NCBI GenBank assembly: GCA_026387265.1
Contig: JAPLLZ010000054.1
Span: forward strand, 1 to 51,669
DNA from: Candidatus Omnitrophota bacterium
Lineage (GTDB): Bacteria > Omnitrophota > Gorgyraeia > Gygaellales > Profunditerraquicolaceae
DNA: 51,669 bases
Reading direction: 5' to 3'
In this document: positions 1 through 43,718 of the stretch, one piece after another
How positions within the stretch are numbered: position 1 is the first letter of the stretch
How the letters are laid out: every line of letters begins with the position of its first letter
Made by a program: the position numbers and the translations under genes
The notes under the pieces: generated by a model
The model's database searches: none
Seen by the model: only the letters and a program-made list of their open reading frames with translations
What the model was told of the DNA's origin: nothing

Positions 1-3000
1 ATAGAAGATATCCGCCGTACCCATGCTACCTTTATATAGCCAGGTAATATTTTTATCCGTCGCCCCAACTAACCAGTTCTGGCTGGCATCCGGCTGCTGA
101 ATGGTGAATGAACCGATGATATCAAAACTGGCACTGGTGCCGTAGACATTGACATTACCGTTATCTACCACCCTAACCTTAATATCATCACTAATCGCAT
201 CGGGGATATTGTTCCAGGTATAATTTTGTGTCGCATCCACAGTACCGGTATCATTAATGACATTGGTAAATTCACCTGCATTTTTAGAATAATACAATTT
301 AACGTAGGAGACTTTAGTGGAACCATTTAAGCTCCAGGCAATGGTGTTAGAGTTAGAGCCGACCACTAAATTTACATCCTGGGCCGGCTGGCTTACGGTT
401 ATCTTAGGTCTCATAGAGAAGGCCGCCGCAGATACACCATACACATCCGGATATCTTAATGGGTCAGCATCAGATACCCTAATAAAACAGGTCTCGGAAT
501 TCTCATCGGCAACTGAGGTCCAAGTATAAGAGTTAGCTCCAGGAAGATGTCCGCTATGATCAGCAATAATTGTACTCAAGCCCCCCGTGGGGGTAGTTTT
601 ATATTCAATTTTTACATTAGAGATTGTTCCATATTCATACCAGCTGATATCTTTGGAATCTCCTTTATACCAGACCTGGCCGCCGTTAGGAACAATATCG
701 GTAATCGCACCCAATATTTTTATAGCATTAGCACAAACAGCAGCAACATTGACATCGGCAGAATGGCTTATTCTAACTTTTACACTATTACTGACCGCAT
801 CAGGAATTTCCCAATCAAATGTTTTTTGAACATTATGAGCAGAGTTAGCCACTTCCTGAATTAAATGCGTCTGGCCTTCATCGCTAAAACCGTTCGTAGA
901 ATATTCTACTTTAATCGGAGAATATGTTCCTTGTGGAGTCCATTTGATCTGATGAGTTGAACCAACTGCCCATTTCAACCCGGATTCAATCGGCTCATTC
1001 ATAACAATTTTACCTTCAATCTCAAAGGCATCACTCTCTGCGAATACCTCGGTATTATTCACTTGTTCTATCCGCACCTTAGCTGCTTTGGCATTATTAG
1101 TGATTGAATCCAGAGGCAAACTAAATCCCGCGTATGGGCTGGCGTTAAAAGCAACAGTAGCTACAGCAGTTCCCCAGGGAGGATTACCGGTTTTAGAAAA
1201 ATAAATACTTACATTACCCATCGGCGCGGTACCCAGAGTAGTCCAGGCAATCGAGAATGGATCACTGATATGGCCGATCGTAGCAGTAGTCGGAGCAGTA
1301 ATACTGATCCCGCTTTTAACCATAAAGCTCGGGCTGGGACAATAGACTACGGCATATCCGGCATCCGATACTTTAATTTTAGCACCAGCGGCGGATAGTA
1401 TATCCTGATTTGTAGGAATGCTCCAATCATACGGGCTAAGCGCAGAACCACGGGAAGCAACAATGTTATAAGCATAAAGATCTGCACCGTTATCCTTGGA
1501 ATAATCGATACGGACATTATCTACTATGCCGGTAACTGACCAAGCGATATTGTTATTGCTTGTACCAATCGTCCATTTATCCGTAGCAATAGGCGAAGTA
1601 ACCGCGATAATTGCACGGACTTCAAAAGTTGCAGATATTGCCCGGGTTGCTTCTTCGTTATTCGGATCAGATATTCTTAACTTACAAGTTTTGGAATTAG
1701 TCGTAATAGGAACTGACCAGTTATACTCACCTGTGTTATCAAATAACCCAGTGCCTCCTCCTATATTATTATAGGCAATGCCATCTGTGGAGAACTCTAG
1801 TTTTATCTGAGGAATATTTGTTCCAGTCTTGCTCCATTTAACCAAATAGCTTGAACCAGCGGGTAAAACTTCTCCATCTGCCGGGCCAGGATCATTAAAG
1901 GTAAATGATCCCTTAATCTTAAAGGCCACACTTTCATCTAATTCTTTATTAGGATTACCAACAGAGGTAACTTTTACTTTTACGCTATTTGATACTGAAT
2001 CAGGTATAGACGGAGACCATGTCCAGCTTCCTGAACCGCCCGTACCTTTAGAAATACCTGTAGCGATCGGATCGCCATAACCAGTACCGTAATCATAGTA
2101 AACATTTACATCTGATATGCTTCCTGTATATAACCAGGTAATATTTTTATCCGTAGACCCCACTGTCCAGTTAGAAGTATCATTTGGCTGCTGAACAGTA
2201 ATGGAACCAATAATGTTAAAAACCGCAGACAAACCAAAAACATTGGGATTACCCGTCCCTCCAGTTTTATCCACAACCTTAACTACCGTAGTGCCTCCAA
2301 GATTATCCGGGATGCTGCTCCAATTACAAGTCCCTAACGTCGCATCAACTCCAGTAAGAATCGTCTTATCAAACGGACCGCTTATACCATTGGTGCTAAA
2401 AAGCACATCCACATTTGAAACTTTGGCTGAACCATTTAAGCTCCAGACAATGGCATTACTATAAGAAGTCCCCACAATAAAATCCGCCCCCAGTACCGGC
2501 TTGCTTACGCTGATTACCGGCCGCATGGAAAACGGCGCCGCAGACTCAATCGGTATCGCTAAATTATTGTGGTCGCTTATTTTAATATAGCAATCTTCAC
2601 TGTTGATATCCGGCACGACCGGCCAGATATATTGATTGCTGCCGACACTATGCCCGGGATCATTAAGTACAATAACACCATCGTAACTTCCGCTAAAAGA
2701 AGTTTTATATTTAATATCTACATTAGTAATCGTGCCACTGGCCGTCCAGGAAATAGTTTTATTGGTTTCATCTTTATACCAAATCTGGCCGCCGTTAGGG
2801 CTCATCGCCGTAAAAGCGCCTTTAATGGTAAATGGATTATCGCTGGCATCACTCACTGGTAAACCGCCGATACTAGTCAAGCGTAGATAAACAGTATTGC
2901 GGATAAAATCAGGAACTTCCCAGGGAAATGGTAATGTCGCAGATGGCCAACCAGGATGCGCAGTATGTAAATCCGTAGCAAAAGTCGGATCCGTAGAATA

Positions 3001-6000
3001 TTCAATTTTTAAATTACCAATAGTCCCAGTCTTCTCCCAAGTTACATCAAAATTCGCACCGACCGCTAAAGTATTATAGCCATTGGGATCCGTAAGCAGT
3101 ATCGAGCCCTTAATATAGTTGTCCGCGGTAGTCTCTCCGAATACTTGCGCGTTACTCTTGTCCGAAACTTTAACTTTAGCAGTAGACGTAATCGTATCCG
3201 GAACCGTCCAGGCGTAAGTCTTAGTTCCGGCAGGCAAAGCACCCGCCTGATCAATAATAGAATGCCATAATGTTCCATCAAAATAATCAATCACATAACC
3301 CGGGATATTACCGTTAAAAGTCCACTCCAGAGTAAAAGGTTTACCGACGACTAACGTCTCGGCGTTCATCGGATGAACCATAAATATACTACCGATAATT
3401 GCGTTTTCCCCGGTAGAGATATCAATTACATCGTTGGCATTAGTTTTTTCATAAATACGCGCCTGAACCGTTGCGCTAGGATCATCAGGAATTGTCCAGT
3501 CAAATTCAGCCGTTGCCCCTGATGTTCCGGCATTAATATCTTCTGCACCAATCACATTCTTCCATTCGGTATGCCCGGAATCAGTAGAATATTCTATTTT
3601 ACATTTACCGAGCGTACCGGTAGGAATCCATTTAATTAGATAGTGATTGGTAATGGGCATATTCACATTGGCATTAGGCTGCACCAATTGTAAAACTCCC
3701 ATAATGGCAAATAACTGAGAATCGCTTTTTACAGTGCTATCGCCAACCTTAGATATCCGCACTACCGTATCACCATTAGGGCTATCTGGAATAGTCCAGC
3801 CATATTTTAAAGAAGTAGGATCCAAATTATCGGCAATCGCCGGGGTCTCCCAAGTACTTCCGGCATCTAATGAATATTCTATCTTTATCTTCTCAACCTT
3901 ACCTTTAGGGGCCAGCCACTCAATATCCGGGCTTGCTTCAACCCGCCATTTAGAATTCGCGTCGGGCTTAGTAATCTCCAGGACCGGTTTAATCTTAAAA
4001 TCATTAGTACTAACTCCATATACGGTAGGTTCAGTTGAATCGCTCACCCGGATACGGCAGGTATCAGAAGTAACTAAAACATATTGTCCTGTGGGAATAG
4101 GCCAAGTATAAGGATGCGAGTTAGCGGCGCGTCCGGCCAGAACTTCAATAGGATAACCGCCTGTTCCGCTGGCCGTATCCAGATAAATATCAACGTTGGC
4201 GATGGTGCCGGTAAAACTCCAGTCGATATTATTAGATATGCCGTTTACCGTCCAGGTTTCGGGACTGCCGGGATTTTTCCCCGGAGCAACCAAAGTAACT
4301 GTGCCATGAACCGAGAAATCCGCAATTGATGCATCATTAACATATGTTGCATCAGAAACCTGCACAATCTTTACCCTATATTTATTACTGGTAGTATTAG
4401 GAACCGGCCAAGAATAGTGACAGATATGGCTGCCGTCTTCATTATTATTATAAGACTTAGTGGTAATTAAATTAGGATAACCGTCCAGGCCGCTGTTGGT
4501 ATCATAATATAAACTAATATTGCCAAGGGTACCGGTATATTTCCATTGGACATCAATAGGATCGCCGCCCACATGATAAGGAGCGCTATTATTAGGTGAG
4601 CCGCCCGGCTCAGGCGCCAAATCCAGAGAACCTTTGATCTGGAAGGCTTCTGATTCATCATTAACATCAGTATCGGTTTCCGCTTCAACCTTAATCTTAT
4701 TATCCACGTTAAGATCTACAGCATCTGGAACAGTCCAATTATAGTTAGGCAGCGAAGAATCTACACCGGTAGCAAAAGCCGCTCCGTAAGTTACGCCGTC
4801 AGGAGCAAAATAAAAAGCCAACGTGCCGATATCGCCGGTTTTAGACCAGGTGATCAGATGGCCTGAACCTACAATTAAAGCCGTGGCATTTTGATTGGAA
4901 TTATTAGGGCTGGTAATCGCCACCGTCCCCTTAACCTCAAAAGTATTTTCGGAAGTAATATTGATATCATTGGGGAAAGCATTGCTTTCCACGCGGATAC
5001 GCAATTTATCGCTAATCGGACAGGCTACCGGATCCCACAAATACCCATCAGCATTCAAAGTATTGGTAATAATCGTCCCAGTCGATCCGCCGTCGATGCT
5101 GTATTTTATATTTACCGTAGGCACATTACCTTGAGTAGTCCAGGTAATATTACGCTGCTCTCCTAAACGCCAAACCTGGCCGCCATTAGGCACCAAGTTA
5201 ATCAGGCGAGAACGTATGGTCAAAGGCTGCGCAGAAACAGAATTAATCGCTGAATCCGAGCTACTCACTACTTTGATTTTTACCTGGGTATTTTTACCAT
5301 TATCTCCGGCTTTAAAAGGATTACCATTGACTGGTAAAGTCCAAGTATAGGTACCATTACCTGTACCTGCTGGAATAGTATTGGTATTATCAATGACATT
5401 AATAAAAAGATCGTTGCCATTATCTTTAGAATAAAATAAATTTACTGTTCCTAATTGCCCGGTAACATTCCAATTTATCAGCTCTTCGGTTCCGCATAAC
5501 CAAGTTAGCGCCGAATCTCCAGAGTTAATCGAAGGACGCGTAAGTGTAACTGTCCCGCGGATAGTAAAATCATTTTCGCTTACTGAGAAAACTTCAGTAG
5601 CTTTTCCTGTTTGATAAACTTTAACGCGCGCTTCTTGTCCAACAATCCCGGCCACATCCGGTATCGTCCACTCATACGCCCCGAGGCTGGCATTTACGCC
5701 GTTAACGATAAAACCTTGATAGCCGTCAACACCACTATTGCCATCCCAGCGTAATTCCACCGTACCAAAGGTAGTCGGATTAGCAGTCCAGGTAATATTT
5801 AAAGGATCCCCGACAAATTTACTAATCCCGGTGGCTGTCGGATAAGTTAATTTAAGATAAGGAATTACTTTAAAAACCGAGGATGCACCGGCGGTTCCGG
5901 TGGTCAAATCCTCATCGCCGTCCAAAGCAACTTTAATTTTAACCGTGTCACTTCTGTGTGCAGGTAAAACCGTCCATTCGTAAGTTCTGGGAGTAGCAAT

Positions 6001-9000
6001 ATTTACTACGCCTTCGGTTAAAAGCACCGGCCAGGAAGTTCCTCCATCTAAGGAAAGGCGGATATCCGCGGTTCCGGTTATAGTACCAAAAGTAGTCCAG
6101 GTGATAACTTTGGTATTACCTTCCCCGGCATCAGTAACCCTTAAGATCTCATTAAGATGCGGCTCACCAACCGTAATGGTTCCTTTAATACTAAACGGGA
6201 CATCAGAATCATCATAAATATTCTCATTATCTTTATTGCAAACGCGGATTAAAACATTATTAGCGCCCAGATCATTAGGCACCGTCCAATTGAATGTCTG
6301 CATTACCTCCTGGGTACCGGCAGCAAGATTATTTTCCGGACGGGCATTTGCACAATAATTCCAAGAACCTGCCCCGACTTTATATTTAATCACCACATAA
6401 TCCATCGCGCCATGTATGGTCCATTTAATCGGTTTAACTTCATTATATCTCCAGATCTCTCCTCCAACAGGCTCATTCACAGTGATAGAAGCCTTCAAAT
6501 GGAAATCTGCGCTTACACCGTAAACCGTAGGATCATTTGCTTGCACGACTTTAATTTTAGAGGTGGGACTTGAACCGGTGACCGAAAGAGGAATATTCCA
6601 AATCCATGATCCACCCGCCGCATCAGTACCGGCAGCAACACTGCTGGCAATCGGCAATTCCCCATAAGTAAAACCAGCGTTACTGGAATAAAATATATTT
6701 ACTGTACCGTCGCTTGTGCCCCCTCCTAATAAACCCTTCTTAGACCAGGAAATCGTTTTAGTGTCTCCAGATAACCAAATCTCATCAGTAGTAGGAGAAA
6801 CATTATAAATATTGCCTTTTAAAGTAAAATTACTGGTGGGGCTTTCCACCAACCCGGCATCTCCGTAATTAAGAATAATTTTTAATTTATTCTGCGTGCC
6901 AATTAAATTCTCGCCGCCTAAACTTGATGGAATACCTGCCCAGCTCCAGGTGTTTCCGCTAGAACCGTCGTTGCCGGGAACAGCCACAGCCGTTAAGGTC
7001 TGGTTAAAATTGGTTCCGTCAGTAGACAACTTAATCGTGGCATTTGCCGGAGTGAGCCCGTTTAAGTTTCCATTCGTGGCCCAGGAAATATCATGCGTTT
7101 CTCCAATTAACCAGGTATTCGGAGGCTGGACAATAGTAAACTTTCCCCGGATGGAAAAATTAGCGTCTGAAACATCATAAAATCTGGTCGGCGTACCCGG
7201 ATCTTTATCAGAATCAATAACCCGCACCCTTAGCTGATTACCCACCAGATTACCGGAAGTGCTATAACTAGCCGGAACCGTCCATTCCCAACGCCCTTCA
7301 TTTTCTACGCTGGAGTTATTATTCACATCCAGCCCGGTAATTAAGGCCAAGGGAAGCCAGCTTGAGCCAGCGTTTGTCGAAAGTTCAATCCTTACTTTAT
7401 GTGCACCGTTAGTTCCCGTACCCAGCATACTCATCATATCGGCATACTTCCAGACAATATCGTGATTTTCACTTACCGCCCAACTTTCACCGCCGTTGGG
7501 GGAGATCACGGTAATCGGCGTCAACTCCGTGAGCGCCCAATTAAGCGTTACGTTACCAGTAGTTGTAGTATTAACGCGGGATATAGTAAAAGAATTCACC
7601 GTATCGGTTTCGCGAGCGGTATCTTCAAGTTGCCACTTGCCTAAAGTAGCATTGTAGCCAAATTTATTGACCGTCCCCAAGTAAGCACTCGCCACCCATA
7701 TTTTATCTAGGTCATTATCATATGCTATACCATACGGATACGAATCAGCAACTAATGAATCGATAACTTCCCCACTTTCAGGGTCAATTACGTCGACGAC
7801 ATTGGAGCCTTCGCACACCACCAACATCTTATTACGCGTACTATCCCAGGCCATCTGCCTGGGCATAAGATCAGTAGGTAAAGCATCAGTAGTAGAATTG
7901 GTAGTGACTGTAGCACGATTATCCGTCATAAATGCTCTGCGCACATAGTTACCGGTAGAGGAATTGACAATCGATGAGACTGCCCAGAGAGTATCCTGAG
8001 TCATACTGCCAACACCTTTAGTCGGCGCATAGAAAATCATAGCATAGTATTGATTTGTAGAACCAAAATCCGGGTTTAATGAACGATTACCATCCGAACA
8101 ACGAAACCTATATATATTGTCATCCAGCTCGGTGACCACCCACATGTAATTTGTGGCATCACTTGGCGTAGGATCATAACATATCCCGGTAGCGCGTCCT
8201 TGCGACCCGTTATAGTTAGTCACCGTATAAGGACTAGCATACATCATCTTGGAGGTAACTGGATAAGGAGTGGCCCCTGTATAATAGTTAGCAGTCCAGG
8301 CACAGTTTGTACTCGGATCCCAGGAAATATCGACGGGATTTTGCCCGACACTGTAGGTGCGCTCAAACGCCCCGGTTGAGGCATTTAGGCGCGTAACGGA
8401 ATTAGCAGAGTAATTGGCAATCCATATTGAACCGCCGCCATTAGTTACGGCAATCGGGTTGGTGCCGGTAGCGTAACTGCCGATTTTTGCTCCGGTGGCC
8501 GCGTTATATTTGGTAACGGTATTGGCCGCATAGTTGGTAACCCATACCGCCTTAGGATTAGTTGATGAATCATAACAAACTCCTTTTACGCTTAACTTTG
8601 TAAAACTCGGAGCAAAGCGTACCTCGTCATCATAGGTAGCAGTAGCTGTATCTGTCGGGCCTGATGTATTTATTATCGGGAACATGCGCATGGTATCAAT
8701 TACCGGGTTCAGTGTTGGATCTGCTGGACCAACTGAACCAGTGGCTACAGCTGTATCGTATACCGAACGAACATTAGTACCCTGATCCGTCATTTCCACC
8801 ACAAACCAATCTATAACAATATTAGAGCTTGCTACAGTTGCGGCGCGATCAAATTGTACTTGCGAAGCATTCAATATCTTACCCCGCACATTATCATATG
8901 CCTCTACACCGACAACATACCTATTTGATCTATAAGTATAGATTAAAAATGCATGGTCTAGATTAGTAATATCAGGGTCAGCGTGGCCGGGATTTATATT

Positions 9001-9492
9001 TTGCGTTTTTGTAGTATCAGCCGCTGCCAAAACCGTCTCCCCGGCCGTCACAATCGCTCCATCAGTAAATTCCACCACCTGCCAAACCACATTTACCGTT
9101 CTAGCATAAACCGTAGTGCCGTATTGCGTAGAATCACGTTGAAGATGCAATGTACTTTTATTGGGAATATCAGCGCTGATTTGGGCAATCTGTTCGCAAT
9201 CACTTCTGGCAAAATTCGCACGGGCCTGAACAATGGCAAACGCCTGGTAATTATCGGCCAGATCCGAAGTGAGAGTAATGGTTTTTTGGGTATACGCCGG
9301 GTTAGTCACTGCTCCCGGAGAAAAAGCACTTATCCCGCGCTGAACATTGACTCCTGAGGCAAATTCAACTACTACATAAGTCACGTTGCAGGCGACAGTG
9401 GCATAATCGCGCGAAATAATTAATTTACTATCGGATTCAAAAACAGCAGTAAATAAAACATTGCGACTGTATTGGTGGTATTGGACGCCGGG
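1..9492 (-). CDS. Giant adhesin-like surface protein, main reading frame (>3,160 codons, 3' end outside the window): 3-4 N-terminal beta-sandwich repeats, a beta-propeller (about 8600-7650), then about 24 tandem ~100-aa Ig-like modules
   Basis: Manual minus-strand translation gives coherent protein in the same frame at 9468, 8760, 8520, 540 and 1 (e.g. VNVVWQVVEF, AVWVTNYAANTVTKYN, ITVISPNGGESW, NWLVGATDKNITWLY). The ORF track has no in-frame stop-terminated ORF here, consistent with a frame that stays open to base 1. Confidence 0.9.
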
Positions 9493-9698
9493 CTAGGATA
9501 TAGCAAGACCATTGTCTTAGACTGATTTACTGATTGTATATCTATTACCTGCGAGATATCATCAGAACCGAAATAAACTGAACCCATCTGCGACCGCTTA
9601 ACCTGGGCGGCCTGCGCATTATTAACCAAAAAAAGCATTACCACTAAACTCAAGGCTAAAGGTAATTTTCTAAATTTTTTAATAAAATTAAGCCACAT
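9420..9698 (-). CDS. N-terminal segment of the giant protein (Sec signal peptide plus half of the first repeat), cut off from the main frame by a -1 frameshift
   Basis: ATG at 9698 lies 1 nt after the upstream TAA. MWLNFIKKFRKLPLALSLVVMLFLVNNAQA is a signal peptide with an AQA cleavage motif. The frame stops at TAA 9420 while the -1 frame completes the repeat (SRNVLFTAVFESDSKLIISR...VVVEF). Confidence 0.8.
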   Translation of the reverse strand: MWLNFIKKFRKLPLALSLVVMLFLVNNAQAAQVKRSQMGSVYFGSDDISQVIDIQSVNQSKTMVLLYPSPASNTTNTVAMFYLLLFLNPIVN

Positions 9699-9699
9699 T

Positions 9700-10176
9700 T
9701 TATTTTTTTGGCCCTTCTTCTTTAGGAAGCTGCGTTCCAAATGGCACAATTTCCTCAAAAGACTGCAACTCTTTTGACACAGGACTCATAAACCTAACTA
9801 CCCTGGCTAATTTAGTCAACACCCTAGTTTTGCTTCTCTCTTCACCGTTAACTGTCTCTTTGGAAACTTCAGATATCTCTGCATATTTTATCCAAACACC
9901 CTCTCCGGGAATAATCTCTTTCAGGCTATTCTTGCGTTCCACTTTAGTGTCTTTATCAATGGTCAAGGCCATTTCATAAGATGTTCTTTTATCCAACCCG
10001 TAATTAATGGCAATAAAATTAGAGGTAATGGCCACTACCTTGCCTTCTAAAATTTTCTCTTGGGTTACTTTTTTAGGTTTGTTAGCTTCTAAAGGCTCTT
10101 CAGTAAATCCCAGGCTCTTTATACCTAAAACTAAAACCAGCACCAATACCAATTTAATGATTCTTAAGCCTATCAC
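9700..10176 (-). CDS. Exported hypothetical protein (small OB-fold/DUF5666-like)
   Basis: ORF 9700..10191. The more likely start is GTG at 10176, after a GGAGGGG Shine-Dalgarno and overlapping the upstream TAG (TAGTG). Hydrophobic N-terminus; LEGKVVAI...IDKDTKV...GEGVWIKY pattern. Confidence 0.65.
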   Translation of the reverse strand: MIGLRIIKLVLVLVLVLGIKSLGFTEEPLEANKPKKVTQEKILEGKVVAITSNFIAINYGLDKRTSYEMALTIDKDTKVERKNSLKEIIPGEGVWIKYAEISEVSKETVNGEERSKTRVLTKLARVVRFMSPVSKELQSFEEIVPFGTQLPKEEGPKK

Positions 10177-11441
10177 TATTTTCCCCTCCAATACTCACCG
10201 GTAAATGTAAAATCCTGCACGGCTAAGCCTTCTTTACGTAAGCTTAAAACACCCTTCATTTTACCATCAGAACTAATATCTGCTCGCCATAGTGCTATTC
10301 CTGTAGGAGCCGCTTGCATCGTCTCCCAAATAATTTTTCCGCTCTCTCCGTTTCTTATGGAATAATTTGAAGAGGCGAATTTTTTCTGTTCTAAGTTTGT
10401 CGAAATAAATTTTTTCTGAGAAAAAGTCAGGGTGTCGGTTTGCGCGGCGCCTCCGGAAGCTGGTGTAAGAGTAATCTGCCAGATGGTGCCTTCCAAGGCT
10501 TCCTGCGGTTTTGGCGTTGAACGAACAACCGGCTGTGCCTCTGCTACTTTTACAGAAGCAGAAGTTTTATCCAGGTTTAAAAAAACCGGTTTGCTCTCTT
10601 TAGCTGTAACCGCACGCTCTTCATTTAGAATAACGCCTTTATTTCCCTTAAGCGCAAACTTAGCTACTAAGGTCAACCCTAATCCTACCAATGCCACCAC
10701 TAAAATTGTAGTGCCGACTTTTAATCCCGGGCCTTTTACCGGCTCTTTAGTTTCATTATCGCCTGCTTTTTCATCTTGGCTTTCTTTATTTATGAATTCA
10801 GCCCTAACCCGATTCTGAAATTCCACTCCCCCTAAAACTCCTTTTTTCTGCAGGGCATTATGCAGATCTAAATCCCCAGCCTTGATTAATTCTTGCATAA
10901 ACTGTTCATATGTTTTCTGTCCCAATAAATTCAAAATTATATTTCTTTCTTCCTGCATAAATTCCTGCATGGGCATCTCTTTATTTATATAAAGAGAATA
11001 GCTGGTGTAAGGATAATCTTTTGCGGAAAAAACCAGGTTGAGTTTTTGCGGATTTAAATGAATATACGCGGTAAGTTTTAAAAGATAGGAATCCTTTTCC
11101 ACCAGGGCAGTTTTAAACCTGTCTCTAAAGAGATGGCCTTTTCTACCGTATTTGCCATTAAAGTATTTAGTGTAAGAAGAATTCAGCCCATGCATAATCT
11201 CCGAAATTCCTCCCTTAAAATCTTCCTGGTCCTGATCAGGTAATTCTAATAGAAGATGAAAATGGCTCGGAAGTAGAGCGTAAGCATATAATTTAAATTT
11301 ATATTGTTCTTTGTATTTTTTTAATAATTCAAAATACGCATTGTAATCTGACTCTTCCTTAAATATATCCTGATTATAAATACAGCGGCTGGTTATGTAA
11401 TAGAGTGCATCTTCTAATGATATTCTCGGTGGTCTTGGCAT
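10176..11441 (-). CDS. REP-associated tyrosine transposase (RAYT/Y1 HUH) domain fused to a transmembrane helix and an exported beta-domain
   Basis: N-terminal motifs MPRPPRI, YYITSR..NQDIF, SHFHLL (HUH), YFNGKYGRKGHLFRDRF and YIHLNP (catalytic Tyr). TM segment TTILVVALVGLGLTLVAKFAL. C-terminal domain paralogous to 13858..14442. Confidence 0.9.
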   Translation of the reverse strand: MPRPPRISLEDALYYITSRCIYNQDIFKEESDYNAYFELLKKYKEQYKFKLYAYALLPSHFHLLLELPDQDQEDFKGGISEIMHGLNSSYTKYFNGKYGRKGHLFRDRFKTALVEKDSYLLKLTAYIHLNPQKLNLVFSAKDYPYTSYSLYINKEMPMQEFMQEERNIILNLLGQKTYEQFMQELIKAGDLDLHNALQKKGVLGGVEFQNRVRAEFINKESQDEKAGDNETKEPVKGPGLKVGTTILVVALVGLGLTLVAKFALKGNKGVILNEERAVTAKESKPVFLNLDKTSASVKVAEAQPVVRSTPKPQEALEGTIWQITLTPASGGAAQTDTLTFSQKKFISTNLEQKKFASSNYSIRNGESGKIIWETMQAAPTGIALWRADISSDGKMKGVLSLRKEGLAVQDFTFTGEYWRGK

Positions 11442-11456
11442 TCTTTACCTTCTTTT

Positions 11457-11485
11457 ACCTGGCACTTTTCATTTGTGCCTGACAC
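11457..11485. repeat. REP-like hairpin immediately upstream of the RAYT-fusion start codon
   Basis: ACCTGGCAC-TTTTCATTT-GTGCCTGACAC: GGCAC/GTGCC arms plus the quasi-palindrome GTGCCTGACAC, 16 nt from the ATG. Only one copy seen in the window. Confidence 0.45.
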
Positions 11486-11500
11486 TTTTTATAATTTTAC

Positions 11501-11530
11501 AAAAAAAACCAGCCATTTTTCCTGGCTGGT
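11501..11530 (-). terminator. Intrinsic terminator (riboswitch expression platform)
   Basis: ACCAGCCA-GGAAAAA-TGGCTGGT followed by a T run, located between the aptamer and the RAYT-fusion gene. Confidence 0.85.
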
Positions 11531-11559
11531 ATTAGTTAGCTGCTTTTAAACTTTTAAAT

Positions 11560-11640
11560 TCTAGCAACCTGCCAATCCTTAAACCTAGGATGCACGGCTT
11601 TGCGTCCCTCAATCTCTTGAGGTTTGCCCTTCGAACTATT
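11560..11640 (-). ncRNA. c-di-GMP-I (GEMM) riboswitch aptamer
   Basis: Minus strand reads GGGCAAACC-TCAA-GAGA-TTGA-GGGACGCAAAGCC...GGCAGGTTGC, matching the GGCAAACC / GNRA-capped P2 / GGGACGCAAAGCC hallmark of the class I c-di-GMP aptamer. Confidence 0.92.
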
Positions 11641-11656: not shown

Positions 11657-11686
11657 AATATAACATATTTTAAGGCGTTTTACCAA
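11657..11686 (-). promoter_or_regulatory. Candidate sigma70 promoter for the riboswitch leader
   Basis: TTGGTA-18 nt-TATATT with an extended -10 TG, overlapped by the inverted repeat TGGTAAAA/TTTTACCA. Confidence 0.4.
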
Positions 11687-13857: not shown

Positions 13858-14442
13858 TTATTGATTAATAACAGCTTCAGACGCTGCTGGCTCCACTACT
13901 GCCGGAATAGGCTCTACTACAGCCGCCGGAGGCGGCACTACTGCGGCCTTATTCGACGCCAAGCTATAGAAATTAAAGTCCGAAACTCTATTTTTCTTAT
14001 CTCGAATACTCAAAACCCCCCGCATTATCCCGTCGCTACCTATATCGCCACGCCAAAAAGCTGCGCCTTCTTTCTCTGAAACTTGCATCGTTTCCCAGGT
14101 ATAGGTCTCCCCATCTTCTAACAAGCGCATAGAAAAATTAGTAGCCTCAAACCCCCTAACCACCATGTTTTTAGAACTTACTTTACCATCAATAAAACTT
14201 ACAACATCTTTTTCGGTTTTACCTTTACCAGACATTGCCTTAGTCTCAATAGCCCATTCTGTACCATTAAGCTCTAGTTTTTTCTTTGCGACCATATCTT
14301 GTGTTTTACTATTTAGTTTTTTTACAACAGGCGCAGCTGTCTTTTGCTCCGCTTCTCCTTTAGCAAACCACTCCGCAAAAACAGAACTTGAATTCATCGC
14401 CAAAAACCCTAAAACTACAAGCACCGAAAGCAATCTCTTCAT
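13858..14442 (-). CDS. Exported hypothetical protein; stand-alone paralogue of the RAYT-fusion C-terminal domain
   Basis: Signal peptide MKRLLSVLVVLGFLAMNSSSVFA. Shares L.GT.W.I, WETMQ, WR.DI.SDG.M.GVLS.R and DF.F with residues ~317-415 of 10176..11441. Confidence 0.8.
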   Translation of the reverse strand: MKRLLSVLVVLGFLAMNSSSVFAEWFAKGEAEQKTAAPVVKKLNSKTQDMVAKKKLELNGTEWAIETKAMSGKGKTEKDVVSFIDGKVSSKNMVVRGFEATNFSMRLLEDGETYTWETMQVSEKEGAAFWRGDIGSDGIMRGVLSIRDKKNRVSDFNFYSLASNKAAVVPPPAAVVEPIPAVVEPAASEAVINQ

Positions 14443-19150: not shown

Positions 19151-19459
19151 TTAGCTTGGTGTTTGCGAATCAGAAGCAATAATACTTTCCGGGCTATTCG
19201 CAAAGTTTTCGGTATTTGCTTCCTCCATCAATTTTTTCCGGATCAAGCTTAACGAATAACCTTGCTGCATTAATTCTCTAAATTTTAGCCGATTCTTAAT
19301 CGTACTTCTATCATAATACCTAATGTTAGCTTTTTTAATGATTACCGGTAACAGCCCAAAATTGGTATAATGATTTACAATCTGGTAAGAAACATTAAAC
19401 TCGCTCATAATTTCTTTAGCGGTGATCATATCATTTTCATCGATGCGATTGTTAGTCAT
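19151..19459 (-). CDS. MerR-family HTH regulator (short, no obvious sensing domain)
   Basis: ITAKEIMSEFNVSYQIVNHYTNFGLL...RYYD...GYSLSLIRKKL winged-HTH pattern. Confidence 0.8.
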   Translation of the reverse strand: MTNNRIDENDMITAKEIMSEFNVSYQIVNHYTNFGLLPVIIKKANIRYYDRSTIKNRLKFRELMQQGYSLSLIRKKLMEEANTENFANSPESIIASDSQTPS

Positions 19460-42772: not shown

Positions 42773-43718
42773 TTTTTTCCTTAACTTTCTCCGGCAGAAT
42801 GTATTTCATACACTTTTTCTTCTTATTGCATACCGGCTTTAAGCAAGGTATGCATTTATAATCTGACGCGGGCAATATATATGGGCCGCAACCATAAGAA
42901 TATATTTCTTTATGCGAGGTCGGACCGAATAAAGCTACCACTCTTTTACCTAGTGCCAGGCAAATATGCAAACCAAGGGTATCGGCCGTAACCACTAAAC
43001 GGCAGGAATTAATCCAATCAATATAATTATAAATATTCGACAATCCTTTCTGCCATGAGATCGTATATTTATCTTTTAACAAAACCTCCAGCCTCTGCCA
43101 GCAGGATTCCGGCCACGACTTATTAGTCCATTTATCGCTCGTAGTCCAATTAAAACCAATATCGTATTTAATATTTGACTTTGGCTTATAACCCAGGATA
43201 TAACGTTCTTGCTTCCAGGTTTTGTTTAACGCTTTAGCCAAAATCTCCTGAAAACAATGCTGATTTAACTTCTTTTTACTGTGTTCTCGGCAAATTTCAA
43301 TCAAATCACTATCACCTATAATATTTTTAAGGTAATTTCCGATATGAGCTTGCCCGCCTTTTAAACCAAAACCTAAGCGCTGCTTAGCATTAAGGGAGCT
43401 GGCTAAAAAACACACCTCCGGTATTTTTTCCAGGTTAATCACCAAATCATAATATTCTTTTTTTAATTCATTTATTATTGAAGGATTGTAAATAAATATC
43501 CGGTGAATATATTTATTATGTTCTAACAACTGCTGCGCTCTCCCGTCAACCAACCAATCTACTGCCCAATCCTTATAATAATTAAGTATAAAAGTCGTAC
43601 GCAGCACATCTCCAAGGCTTGTGGTGATACTCAACGCCTTATCCAGGGTCTCTGAATAACCCATCTTGATTATTAAAACTTTCTGTTTTAACCTTTTTTG
43701 TTTTCGTGTCGGAACCAT
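42729..43718 (-). CDS. Glycosyltransferase family 9 (heptosyltransferase-like)
   Basis: KVLIIKMG, SLGDVLRTT, YDLVINLE, CRLVVTADTLGLHI..ALGKRVVALFGPT, C.PC....C..CM. Exact start uncertain. Confidence 0.88.
   Translation of the reverse strand: MVPTRKQKRLKQKVLIIKMGYSETLDKALSITTSLGDVLRTTFILNYYKDWAVDWLVDGRAQQLLEHNKYIHRIFIYNPSIINELKKEYYDLVINLEKIPEVCFLASSLNAKQRLGFGLKGGQAHIGNYLKNIIGDSDLIEICREHSKKKLNQHCFQEILAKALNKTWKQERYILGYKPKSNIKYDIGFNWTTSDKWTNKSWPESCWQRLEVLLKDKYTISWQKGLSNIYNYIDWINSCRLVVTADTLGLHICLALGKRVVALFGPTSHKEIYSYGCGPYILPASDYKCIPCLKPVCNKKKKCMKYILPEKVKEKIENEFKSRSYSKKL

Follow-up and report, generated by a model that had tools for sequence, protein, structure and literature searches.

A membrane-anchored Y1 transposase-fold protein at the head of giant-gene operons in Omnitrophota, a probable regulator or tether preceded by a c-di-GMP riboswitch

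Two groups of Y1 (HUH) proteins are the nearest described counterparts of the gene examined here. The RAYT (TnpA-REP) proteins, such as E. coli YafM (PDB 4ER8), have the HUH fold, the HUH motif, and a tyrosine motif of the form Y-x-H/x-x-N-P, and they are low-copy and maintained by the host. Members of TnpA-Y1 subclass 2.1 (Quentin et al. 2018, PMC6006769) carry a Y1 core and a C-terminal Bac_DnaA_C/helix-turn-helix (HTH) domain and are not associated with repetitive extragenic palindromic (REP) sequences; membrane-anchored forms are not mentioned in that paper. The gene in question, P0001, lies at 10176..11441 on the minus strand of contig JAPLLZ010000054.1 (assembly GCA_026387265.1, Candidatus Omnitrophota bacterium); the whole 51,669-nt stretch that was analyzed is termed "the window". 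Its product is a Y1(HUH)-transmembrane (TM)-barrel fusion that has all of the RAYT features just listed. Unlike a RAYT, the fusion also features a TM helix and a predicted periplasmic barrel, it has a fixed place heading a giant-gene operon, its genome contains no REP or REPIN array, and its score in the NCBIfam model REP_Tyr_transpos (NF047646) was 73.7 bits, short of the equivalog cut-off of 80. The lack of REP association is common to the fusion and TnpA-Y1 subclass 2.1. The core and the helical middle region that follows DYPxSSY (..ILGSxxF..) recur in the soluble Omnitrophota paralogues L063-L065 (~315 aa, with a DnaA_C-like HTH end). Where subclass 2.1 has its HTH, however, the fusion has a TM helix and a beta-barrel, and sister clades have a TM helix and a coiled coil.

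Omnitrophota are characterized by giant genes (20 kb to >100 kb), to which a role in attachment or predation is generally ascribed. Because the fusion heads a giant-protein operon controlled by a cyclic di-GMP (c-di-GMP) riboswitch across the phylum, its probable role is that of a regulator or tether of giant genes that had not been described before. Neither the membrane-anchored Y1 protein nor the cassette nor the riboswitch is described in the RAYT/TnpA-Y1 surveys and Omnitrophota giant-gene papers that were searched. We give about an even chance to the following explanation: the fusion is a membrane-tethered, ToxR-like, HUH-based DNA-binding protein that would regulate or tether the giant-gene operon at a pair of motifs in its leader, under the riboswitch.

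The same order of elements was found in about 40 Omnitrophota loci: promoter, c-di-GMP-I riboswitch with terminator, motif pair, fusion, an open reading frame (ORF) of ~150 aa, and a giant ORF. In these loci the ~150-aa ORF starts 0-50 nt past the fusion, and the giant ORF about 480 nt past the fusion stop. The latter extended beyond the 10-kb flank or the fetched DNA in nearly every case; its gene-called lengths were 8,192 aa in L003, 7,685 aa in L005, and 6,906 aa in L004. A preliminary description of this DNA had named the fusion as the head gene of a giant-protein operon, and the gene order in relatives bears this out.

The fusion gene is an uninterrupted ORF whose product has 421 aa (the window features described here are on the minus strand). 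Its predicted cytoplasmic Y1/HUH core (residues 1-150; 10992..11441) contains the HFH motif at residues 60-62 (11256..11264) and the YIHLNP tyrosine motif at residues 126-131 (11049..11066), both intact, as the preliminary description had stated. Pfam Y1_Tnp (PF01797) matched residues 13-128 with 43.2 bits (cut-off 23; E 5e-11); the profile score, the HUH motif, a catalytic Tyr with a polar residue at +4, and the fold all place the protein in this family. There follow a helical middle region (residues 151-226, including GVLGGVEF; 10764..10991), a single TM helix located by hydropathy analysis (residues 244-264, TTILVVALVGLGLTLVAKFAL; 10650..10712), which is the sole hydrophobic segment of the protein, and a predicted extracytoplasmic eight-stranded beta-barrel domain (residues ~315-418; 10188..10499). 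Residues 302-413 were 39% identical (E 1e-20) to a free secreted barrel paralogue of 194 aa (13858..14442) that has a signal peptide; thus, the earlier observation of one TM helix followed by a domain that recurs in a signal-peptide-bearing neighbor was correct. The signal peptides of the free barrel paralogues support a bitopic, N-in/C-out topology for the fusion.

An AlphaFold2 model of the fusion, built on a 91-sequence alignment, had a mean predicted local distance difference test score (pLDDT) of 78. Confidence was high for residues 1-226, which span the HUH core and the helical region (helices at 163-226), and for the eight-stranded C-terminal domain (319-418; pLDDT >90), but not for the linker and TM region. 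In Foldseek, the top PDB match of the Y1 core was 4er8_A, the E. coli RAYT with a REP hairpin (E 1.2e-7; target-normalized TM-score 0.74; root-mean-square deviation of 2.8 Å over 155 columns), and the best 29 matches were RAYT, IS200, IS608, and ISDra2 TnpA proteins. A sequence-profile search of the PDB yielded 4er8 as the sole biologically relevant match; a designed coiled coil, 8qag, scored marginally higher. No OmpR-type winged helix was present among the Pfam/NCBIfam matches of the fusion, the cytoplasmic part of which is a Y1 fold. For the C-terminal barrel, the Foldseek matches were weak and included lipocalin-type barrels and the corresponding barrel of fHbp (C-terminal). Its sequence family is unannotated and comprises 695 clusters at 50% identity, mostly free proteins of 160-250 aa.

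Among 5.8 billion proteins searched, 953 were relatives of the fusion, and >100 of these were full length (98-100% coverage, 380-430 aa, 38-82% identity). These full-length homologues derive from ENA, JGI, NCBI, and Logan assemblies, and those with labels are nearly all from Omnitrophota; the fusion was present at 45 genome loci. The possibility, raised in the preliminary description, that the gene is an assembly chimera is countered by its in-frame occurrence in so many independent assemblies. In an alignment of 91 homologues, H60, Y126, and H128 were kept in 91/91 and H62 and N130 in 90/91 at an overall identity of about 40%. Twenty-two columns were invariant, among them the barrel residues F340, S347, W372, W385, G397, and F413, and exactly one strongly hydrophobic 19-residue segment was found in every homologue (median Kyte-Doolittle value 2.29). 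When 301 Omnitrophota genomes were searched with a profile, the full-length fusion was located in about 31, and three related classes emerged: a TM and coiled-coil form (about 310-350 aa), a soluble form with a DnaA_C-like HTH at its end (about 315 aa), and a core-only form (about 165 aa). Only two Y1 genes are present in the window's genome (1.56 Mb, 87% complete), and the host synteny is fixed in about 40 loci, which is not the multi-copy mobile unit that defines IS200/IS605 elements. The small number of Y1 genes, the lack of a REP array, and the phylum-wide synteny together indicate a domesticated gene, as had been proposed. On this comparative evidence, we take the fusion to be real, old, and under selection.

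The leader begins with a sigma70-like promoter, found by consensus scan (11657..11686), with a -35 element TTGGTA (11686..11681), an 18-nt spacer, and a TG-extended -10 element TATATT (11662..11657); relatives have TTGACA..TATACT at the equivalent position. Downstream of it is a c-di-GMP-I (GEMM-I) riboswitch aptamer (11560..11638), which scored 58.6 bits in Rfam RF01051 (gathering score 35; E 5.7e-9). This family was also detected ahead of the fusion in L003 and in 13 of 15 further loci tested, with scores of 38-66 bits in relatives; the two misses have insertions within a stem. The expression platform is an intrinsic terminator (11501..11530), composed of ACCAGCCAGG-AAAAA-TGGCTGGT and then T8, and a hairpin with a T-run occupied the equivalent position in every leader inspected. 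In several loci (window 11501-11640; L026, L038, L033), the terminator has a 3' arm (GAGUUUGCCUGGG) complementary to a conserved 5' element of the aptamer, GGCAAACUC. This complementarity suggests an OFF-type switch in which the ligand would favor termination.

In almost every locus, the terminator and the ATG are separated by a stretch with two direct copies of a 13-14-nt motif, AAAGTGCCAGGCA(C), the core of which is the palindrome GTGCC-A-GGCAC. In the window, the distal copy is AAAGTGTCAGGCAC (11475..11488) and the proximal copy, 20 nt from it, is AAAGTGCCAGGTA (11456..11468); the palindromic core of the proximal copy begins 24 nt ahead of the ATG, and a Shine-Dalgarno sequence, GAAGGT, comes next. 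The preliminary description had viewed 11457-11485 as a hairpin. It consists instead of the two direct copies, whose facing halves (3' in copy 1, 5' in copy 2) can base-pair and so give the appearance of a hairpin. Ahead of the fusion ATG, the motif pair was detected in about 37/40 loci, and in at least 25 of the about 31 fusion genomes the exact 12-mer is no more than about 100 nt upstream of the gene. In the 1.56-Mb genome, AAGTGYCAGGYA occurs only as the two leader copies. The copies are spaced by 20-21 nt (8 loci), 30-32 nt (20 loci), or 42, 63, or 137 nt. All measured spacings fall within 1.5 nt of a multiple of 10.5, a pattern that may be partly inherited and that suggests binding to one face of duplex DNA. 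The fusion is the sole nucleic-acid-binding protein encoded in the cassette. Neither the riboswitch nor the direct-repeat motif nor a MerR-like regulator (discussed below) had been linked to the fusion in the earlier reading.

The sister clades bear on what this protein does at such sites. L050-L055 and L057 encode the Y1 core, the helical region, a TM helix, and a coiled-coil C-terminus ahead of small ORFs and a giant ORF. The HUH motif and the Tyr are retained in the L050 type. Both are lost in L055 (NQVNML for HUH, F for Tyr), in L057 (SERLFL for HUH, H for Tyr; GTGCCAGGCAC is retained at -56), and in L066, and the first His alone is lost in L067. Despite these losses, the TM helix and the giant gene are kept, as is the motif in L057, L066, and L067. 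In the TM-coil variants L066 and L067 the motif is directly upstream of a -35 box, a position typical of regulator binding: in L067 it abuts a TTGCCA-N17-TATACT promoter that drives a riboswitch, and in L066 one copy is upstream of the -35 box and one past the terminator. Both L066 copies have undergone the same symmetric change, from GTGCC..GGCAC to GTACC..CGTAC (variant GTACCACGTAC), as would be expected of a co-evolving protein-operator pair. The untranscribed copies and the concerted, symmetric change argue that a dedicated DNA-binding protein recognizes the motif. Persistence of the arrangement in catalytically dead sister lineages makes DNA binding, rather than cleavage, the more likely shared and constant function. 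The single-stranded DNA (ssDNA) nuclease output advanced in the preliminary description is a possible activity of the fusion: the catalytic set is invariant in the fusion clade, but HUH and/or Tyr have been lost in L055, L057, L066, and L067. Catalysis may persist in the fusion clade and yet lie outside the conserved core of the function.

Several other identities of the motif were considered and set aside. It does not represent a REP family in the window's genome, where it occurs only twice; a match at 42953 is inside a coding region and was attributed to chance. Its CTGGCAC resembles the -24 box of a sigma54 promoter, but the GG-N10-GC spacing fails in barrel-clade leaders. A CsrA site was rejected, as there is no GGA in the loop. 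Antitermination of the ops/RfaH type is unlikely, because the 87%-complete genome has a single NusG gene and an RfaH-type partner is thus improbable. Lone 12-mer matches in cassette-free genomes were near the chance level of a reversed-pattern control or were terminator-like hairpins. Extra copies were also observed. At ~2930 and 5184 of L067 (gene orientation), upstream of TM-coil Y1 genes, two motif copies are followed by TCTTTATGCT, giving CTGGCAC-N5-ATGC with the correct GG-N10-GC spacing; these are possible sigma54-type promoters. In L031, motif-like copies (GTGACTGGCAC / GTGCCTGTCAC) at 5697-5788 and 8709-8743 are upstream of the peptidyl-prolyl isomerase (PPIase) gene and after a barrel-paralogue gene, and one type of site may control several genes of that cluster.

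Related palindromes were found elsewhere in the phylum. Genome G110 (L068-L070) contains 15 intergenic copies of a 19-nt perfect palindrome, AAAAGTGCCWGGCACTTTT, i.e. AAAAGTGCC[AT]GGCACTTTT, which is the same word as the leader motif. Some of these copies form inverted doublets, i.e. long hairpins with A- and T-tracts, like REPINs or bidirectional terminators. This genome has RAYT-like genes and no MerR-like gene, and its Y1 genes are not flanked by the motif. In G234 (1.6 Mb) there are 156 copies of a classical GTAG-tagged REP, GGGCACATGCAATGTGCCCCTAC (≤3 mismatches; 0 in the reversed control). The G234 copies are often in inverted pairs, and several are located between two tandem TM-coil Y1 genes (L067, G234:C20:16500-23000). 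These elements would fit an operator that descends from the hairpin once recognized by an ancestral RAYT. A different repeat was noted in L081 (G276:C28:1-4500), where a ~60-nt unit with GTTACTAAAAGTGCCAGGCAGG recurs every ~1,085 nt between small genes, like a cassette array; it may be integron-like.

Under the regulator-or-tether explanation, c-di-GMP would gate read-through of the riboswitch, as homology suggests. The HUH-derived cytoplasmic module would then bind both motif copies in the leader, with the consequence that the operon is autoregulated and/or the giant-gene locus is held at the membrane. Finally, the periplasmic barrel would couple binding to an envelope or contact signal, as ToxR does with ToxS, possibly helped by the free secreted barrel paralogues and the OB-like partner encoded by the second cassette gene. 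A number of observations weigh against this explanation. A motif adjacent to a gene identifies the regulated target and not the regulator, so binding by the fusion is a prediction. In the fusion clade the sites are downstream of the promoter and terminator, in the transcribed leader, a position that is a better fit to a roadblock, a tether, or a role in RNA or ssDNA than to classical activation. The invariance of the HUH, Tyr, His, and Asn residues (90-91/91) argues that the chemistry still matters. The palindromic core and the inter-copy pairing (10 bp, one A.A mismatch) would also fit an RNA or ssDNA hairpin, and the motif word appears as terminator-like or REP-like hairpins in G110, G133, and G091. 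A small MerR-like protein is encoded in 25/31 of the barrel-fusion genomes. Lastly, positive charge is nearly equal on the two TM flanks, a weak bias that leaves the predicted topology dependent on the paralogue signal peptide.

The strict conservation of the catalytic residues is a point in favor of an active membrane-tethered HUH nickase, a role we consider unlikely. Such an enzyme would cleave the leader motif when it is exposed as a hairpin in single-stranded or supercoiled DNA and become covalently linked via Tyr126; it could thereby attach the locus to the membrane, relieve topological stress in a transcription unit of 30-100 kb, or start local DNA processing, with binding in the absence of cleavage being a degenerate state of some sister clades only. 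The nearest fold is a RAYT on its REP hairpin, the motif core is palindromic, and the amplified doublets of G110 together with the GTAG-tagged REPs of G234 keep this role alive. Against it, the four lineages that lost HUH and/or Tyr kept the giant-gene synteny and, in some cases, the motif; the intra-motif stem is merely 4-5 bp; a nick before an essential-size operon at each induction would be costly; and the G110 Y1 genes have no flanking motif. At the other extreme, the fusion could be an incidental or decaying gene of an IS200/RAYT-type mobile element, or an assembly chimera, with no host function. Public annotations do call it 'transposase' or 'RayT', and a 2026 preprint takes transposase genes beside giant genes as evidence of mobile DNA, but the ORF is in frame across >100 independent assemblies, its place in the three-gene cassette does not vary between classes, repeat families are absent from the genome, which has only two Y1 genes, and the TM helix and barrel are conserved alongside the Y1 domain. 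Judged by these comparisons, this possibility is refuted for practical purposes and was given almost no weight.

A further alternative, also held to be improbable, assigns the motif to another factor and makes the fusion an accessory of giant-protein biogenesis, e.g. a membrane scaffold with the HUH domain as a protein- or nucleic-acid-binding module. The most plausible such factor is a 73-aa MerR-family HTH protein encoded 8 kb upstream of the cassette (19223..19441), at the head of the ExeA-like/secretin sub-cluster of the window; alternatively, the motif would be an RNA hairpin that stabilizes or processes the giant mRNA. The MerR-like gene is immediately upstream of the promoter and motif in L066, homologues adjoin the Y1-TM cassette in the genus-mates G189, G095, G273, and G272, and, besides the barrel-fusion genomes, 10/13 TM-coil genomes carry it, often 5-10 kb upstream on the same contig. 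However, no homologue was found even at E≤0.01 in G014, G040, and G052, which are 94-97% complete and have the fusion and exact motif copies, and the MerR-like gene occurs in at least 45 genomes that have no cassette, with the 12-mer absent from those that were checked. The half-site centers are 6 bp apart, which is atypical for a dimeric HTH protein and counts against MerR as the binder. For an RNA hairpin, the 10-bp stem formed between the copies is favorable, and on the sense strand the variant positions in the window's copies form G.U wobbles, but the copy upstream of the -35 box in L066/L067 is untranscribed and hence cannot act as RNA.

The remaining genes of the cassette and its surroundings were also characterized. 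The second gene (9700..10191) overlaps the fusion stop codon in the window, keeps its place after the fusion in about 40 loci, and encodes a 163-aa protein with a signal peptide and a predicted OB-like five-stranded barrel (model pLDDT 84.7; no Pfam match). This barrel was rejected as a homologue of the fusion barrel (hhalign probability 0.3%), and its weak SSB-like OB matches (E≥2.7e-3) were not counted as evidence of ssDNA binding, since the protein has a signal peptide. The giant repeat protein (1..9698; >3,128 aa) extends past the window edge and has only weak Ig-like Pfam matches. Its gene looks split: a signal-peptide start is found in the ORF at 9420..9758 (minus strand), where relatives begin the giant ORF, and the long frame starts only at 9384 in another frame. 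The change near 9384-9420 is an assembly error or a true frameshift. Upstream of the cassette, the window and its close relatives have genes for a cyclophilin/SurA-like PPIase, a BsuPI-like protein, a free barrel paralogue, a TPR protein, a secretin, and an ExeA-like ATPase; L031 has two free barrel paralogues, one of them inside the cassette. Glycosyltransferase and O-antigen-type genes occupy the upstream region in L003 and L005, so the proximity to the secretin on which the preliminary description had drawn is lineage-specific. Because the upstream genes vary between lineages, the three-gene cassette, and not the secretin neighborhood, is the conserved unit. Nothing pointed to rearrangement of the repeat gene, another activity that had been suggested for the fusion.

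The c-di-GMP riboswitch, the genome-unique cis motif, and the conserved transposase-fold membrane protein offer handles on the question of how giant genes are regulated and transcribed and their products exported. If the HUH domain binds the motif, the fusion would reveal one more fate of domesticated Y1 transposases, a group whose role in the host has long been debated, and it would represent a new class of DNA-binding module among bitopic one-component regulators. A bolder proposal, which we regard as rather doubtful, is that the HUH fold serves as the output of transmembrane signaling: the barrel would sense a periplasmic cue, the protein would bind the leader palindrome and, in the fusion clade, perhaps nick it and link to it covalently, and the 30-100-kb unit would be pinned to the membrane for co-located transcription, translation, and export. 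If true, the fusion would be without precedent as a membrane-tethered HUH regulator or tether, and bacterial giant genes would gain their first dedicated expression factor.

With respect to known regulatory systems, the fusion resembles ToxR/ToxS, TcpP/TcpH, and CadC in having a predicted cytoplasmic nucleic-acid-binding domain, one TM helix, and a periplasmic domain, in being co-transcribed with a small periplasmic partner, and in having direct repeats as candidate sites. It differs from ToxR, TcpP, and CadC in that its module is an HUH/Y1 fold and not an OmpR-type winged helix, and in that its putative sites are in the transcribed leader. The LapD/LapG-LapA system and the GEMM-I riboswitches of adhesins and pili are similar in that production of a giant surface protein is under c-di-GMP control and the module includes a membrane protein that has a periplasmic domain. 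Unlike the Lap system, the cassette includes neither a LapG-like protease nor a type I secretion system, and its control is exerted via a riboswitch and terminator where LapD employs a degenerate GGDEF-EAL receptor.

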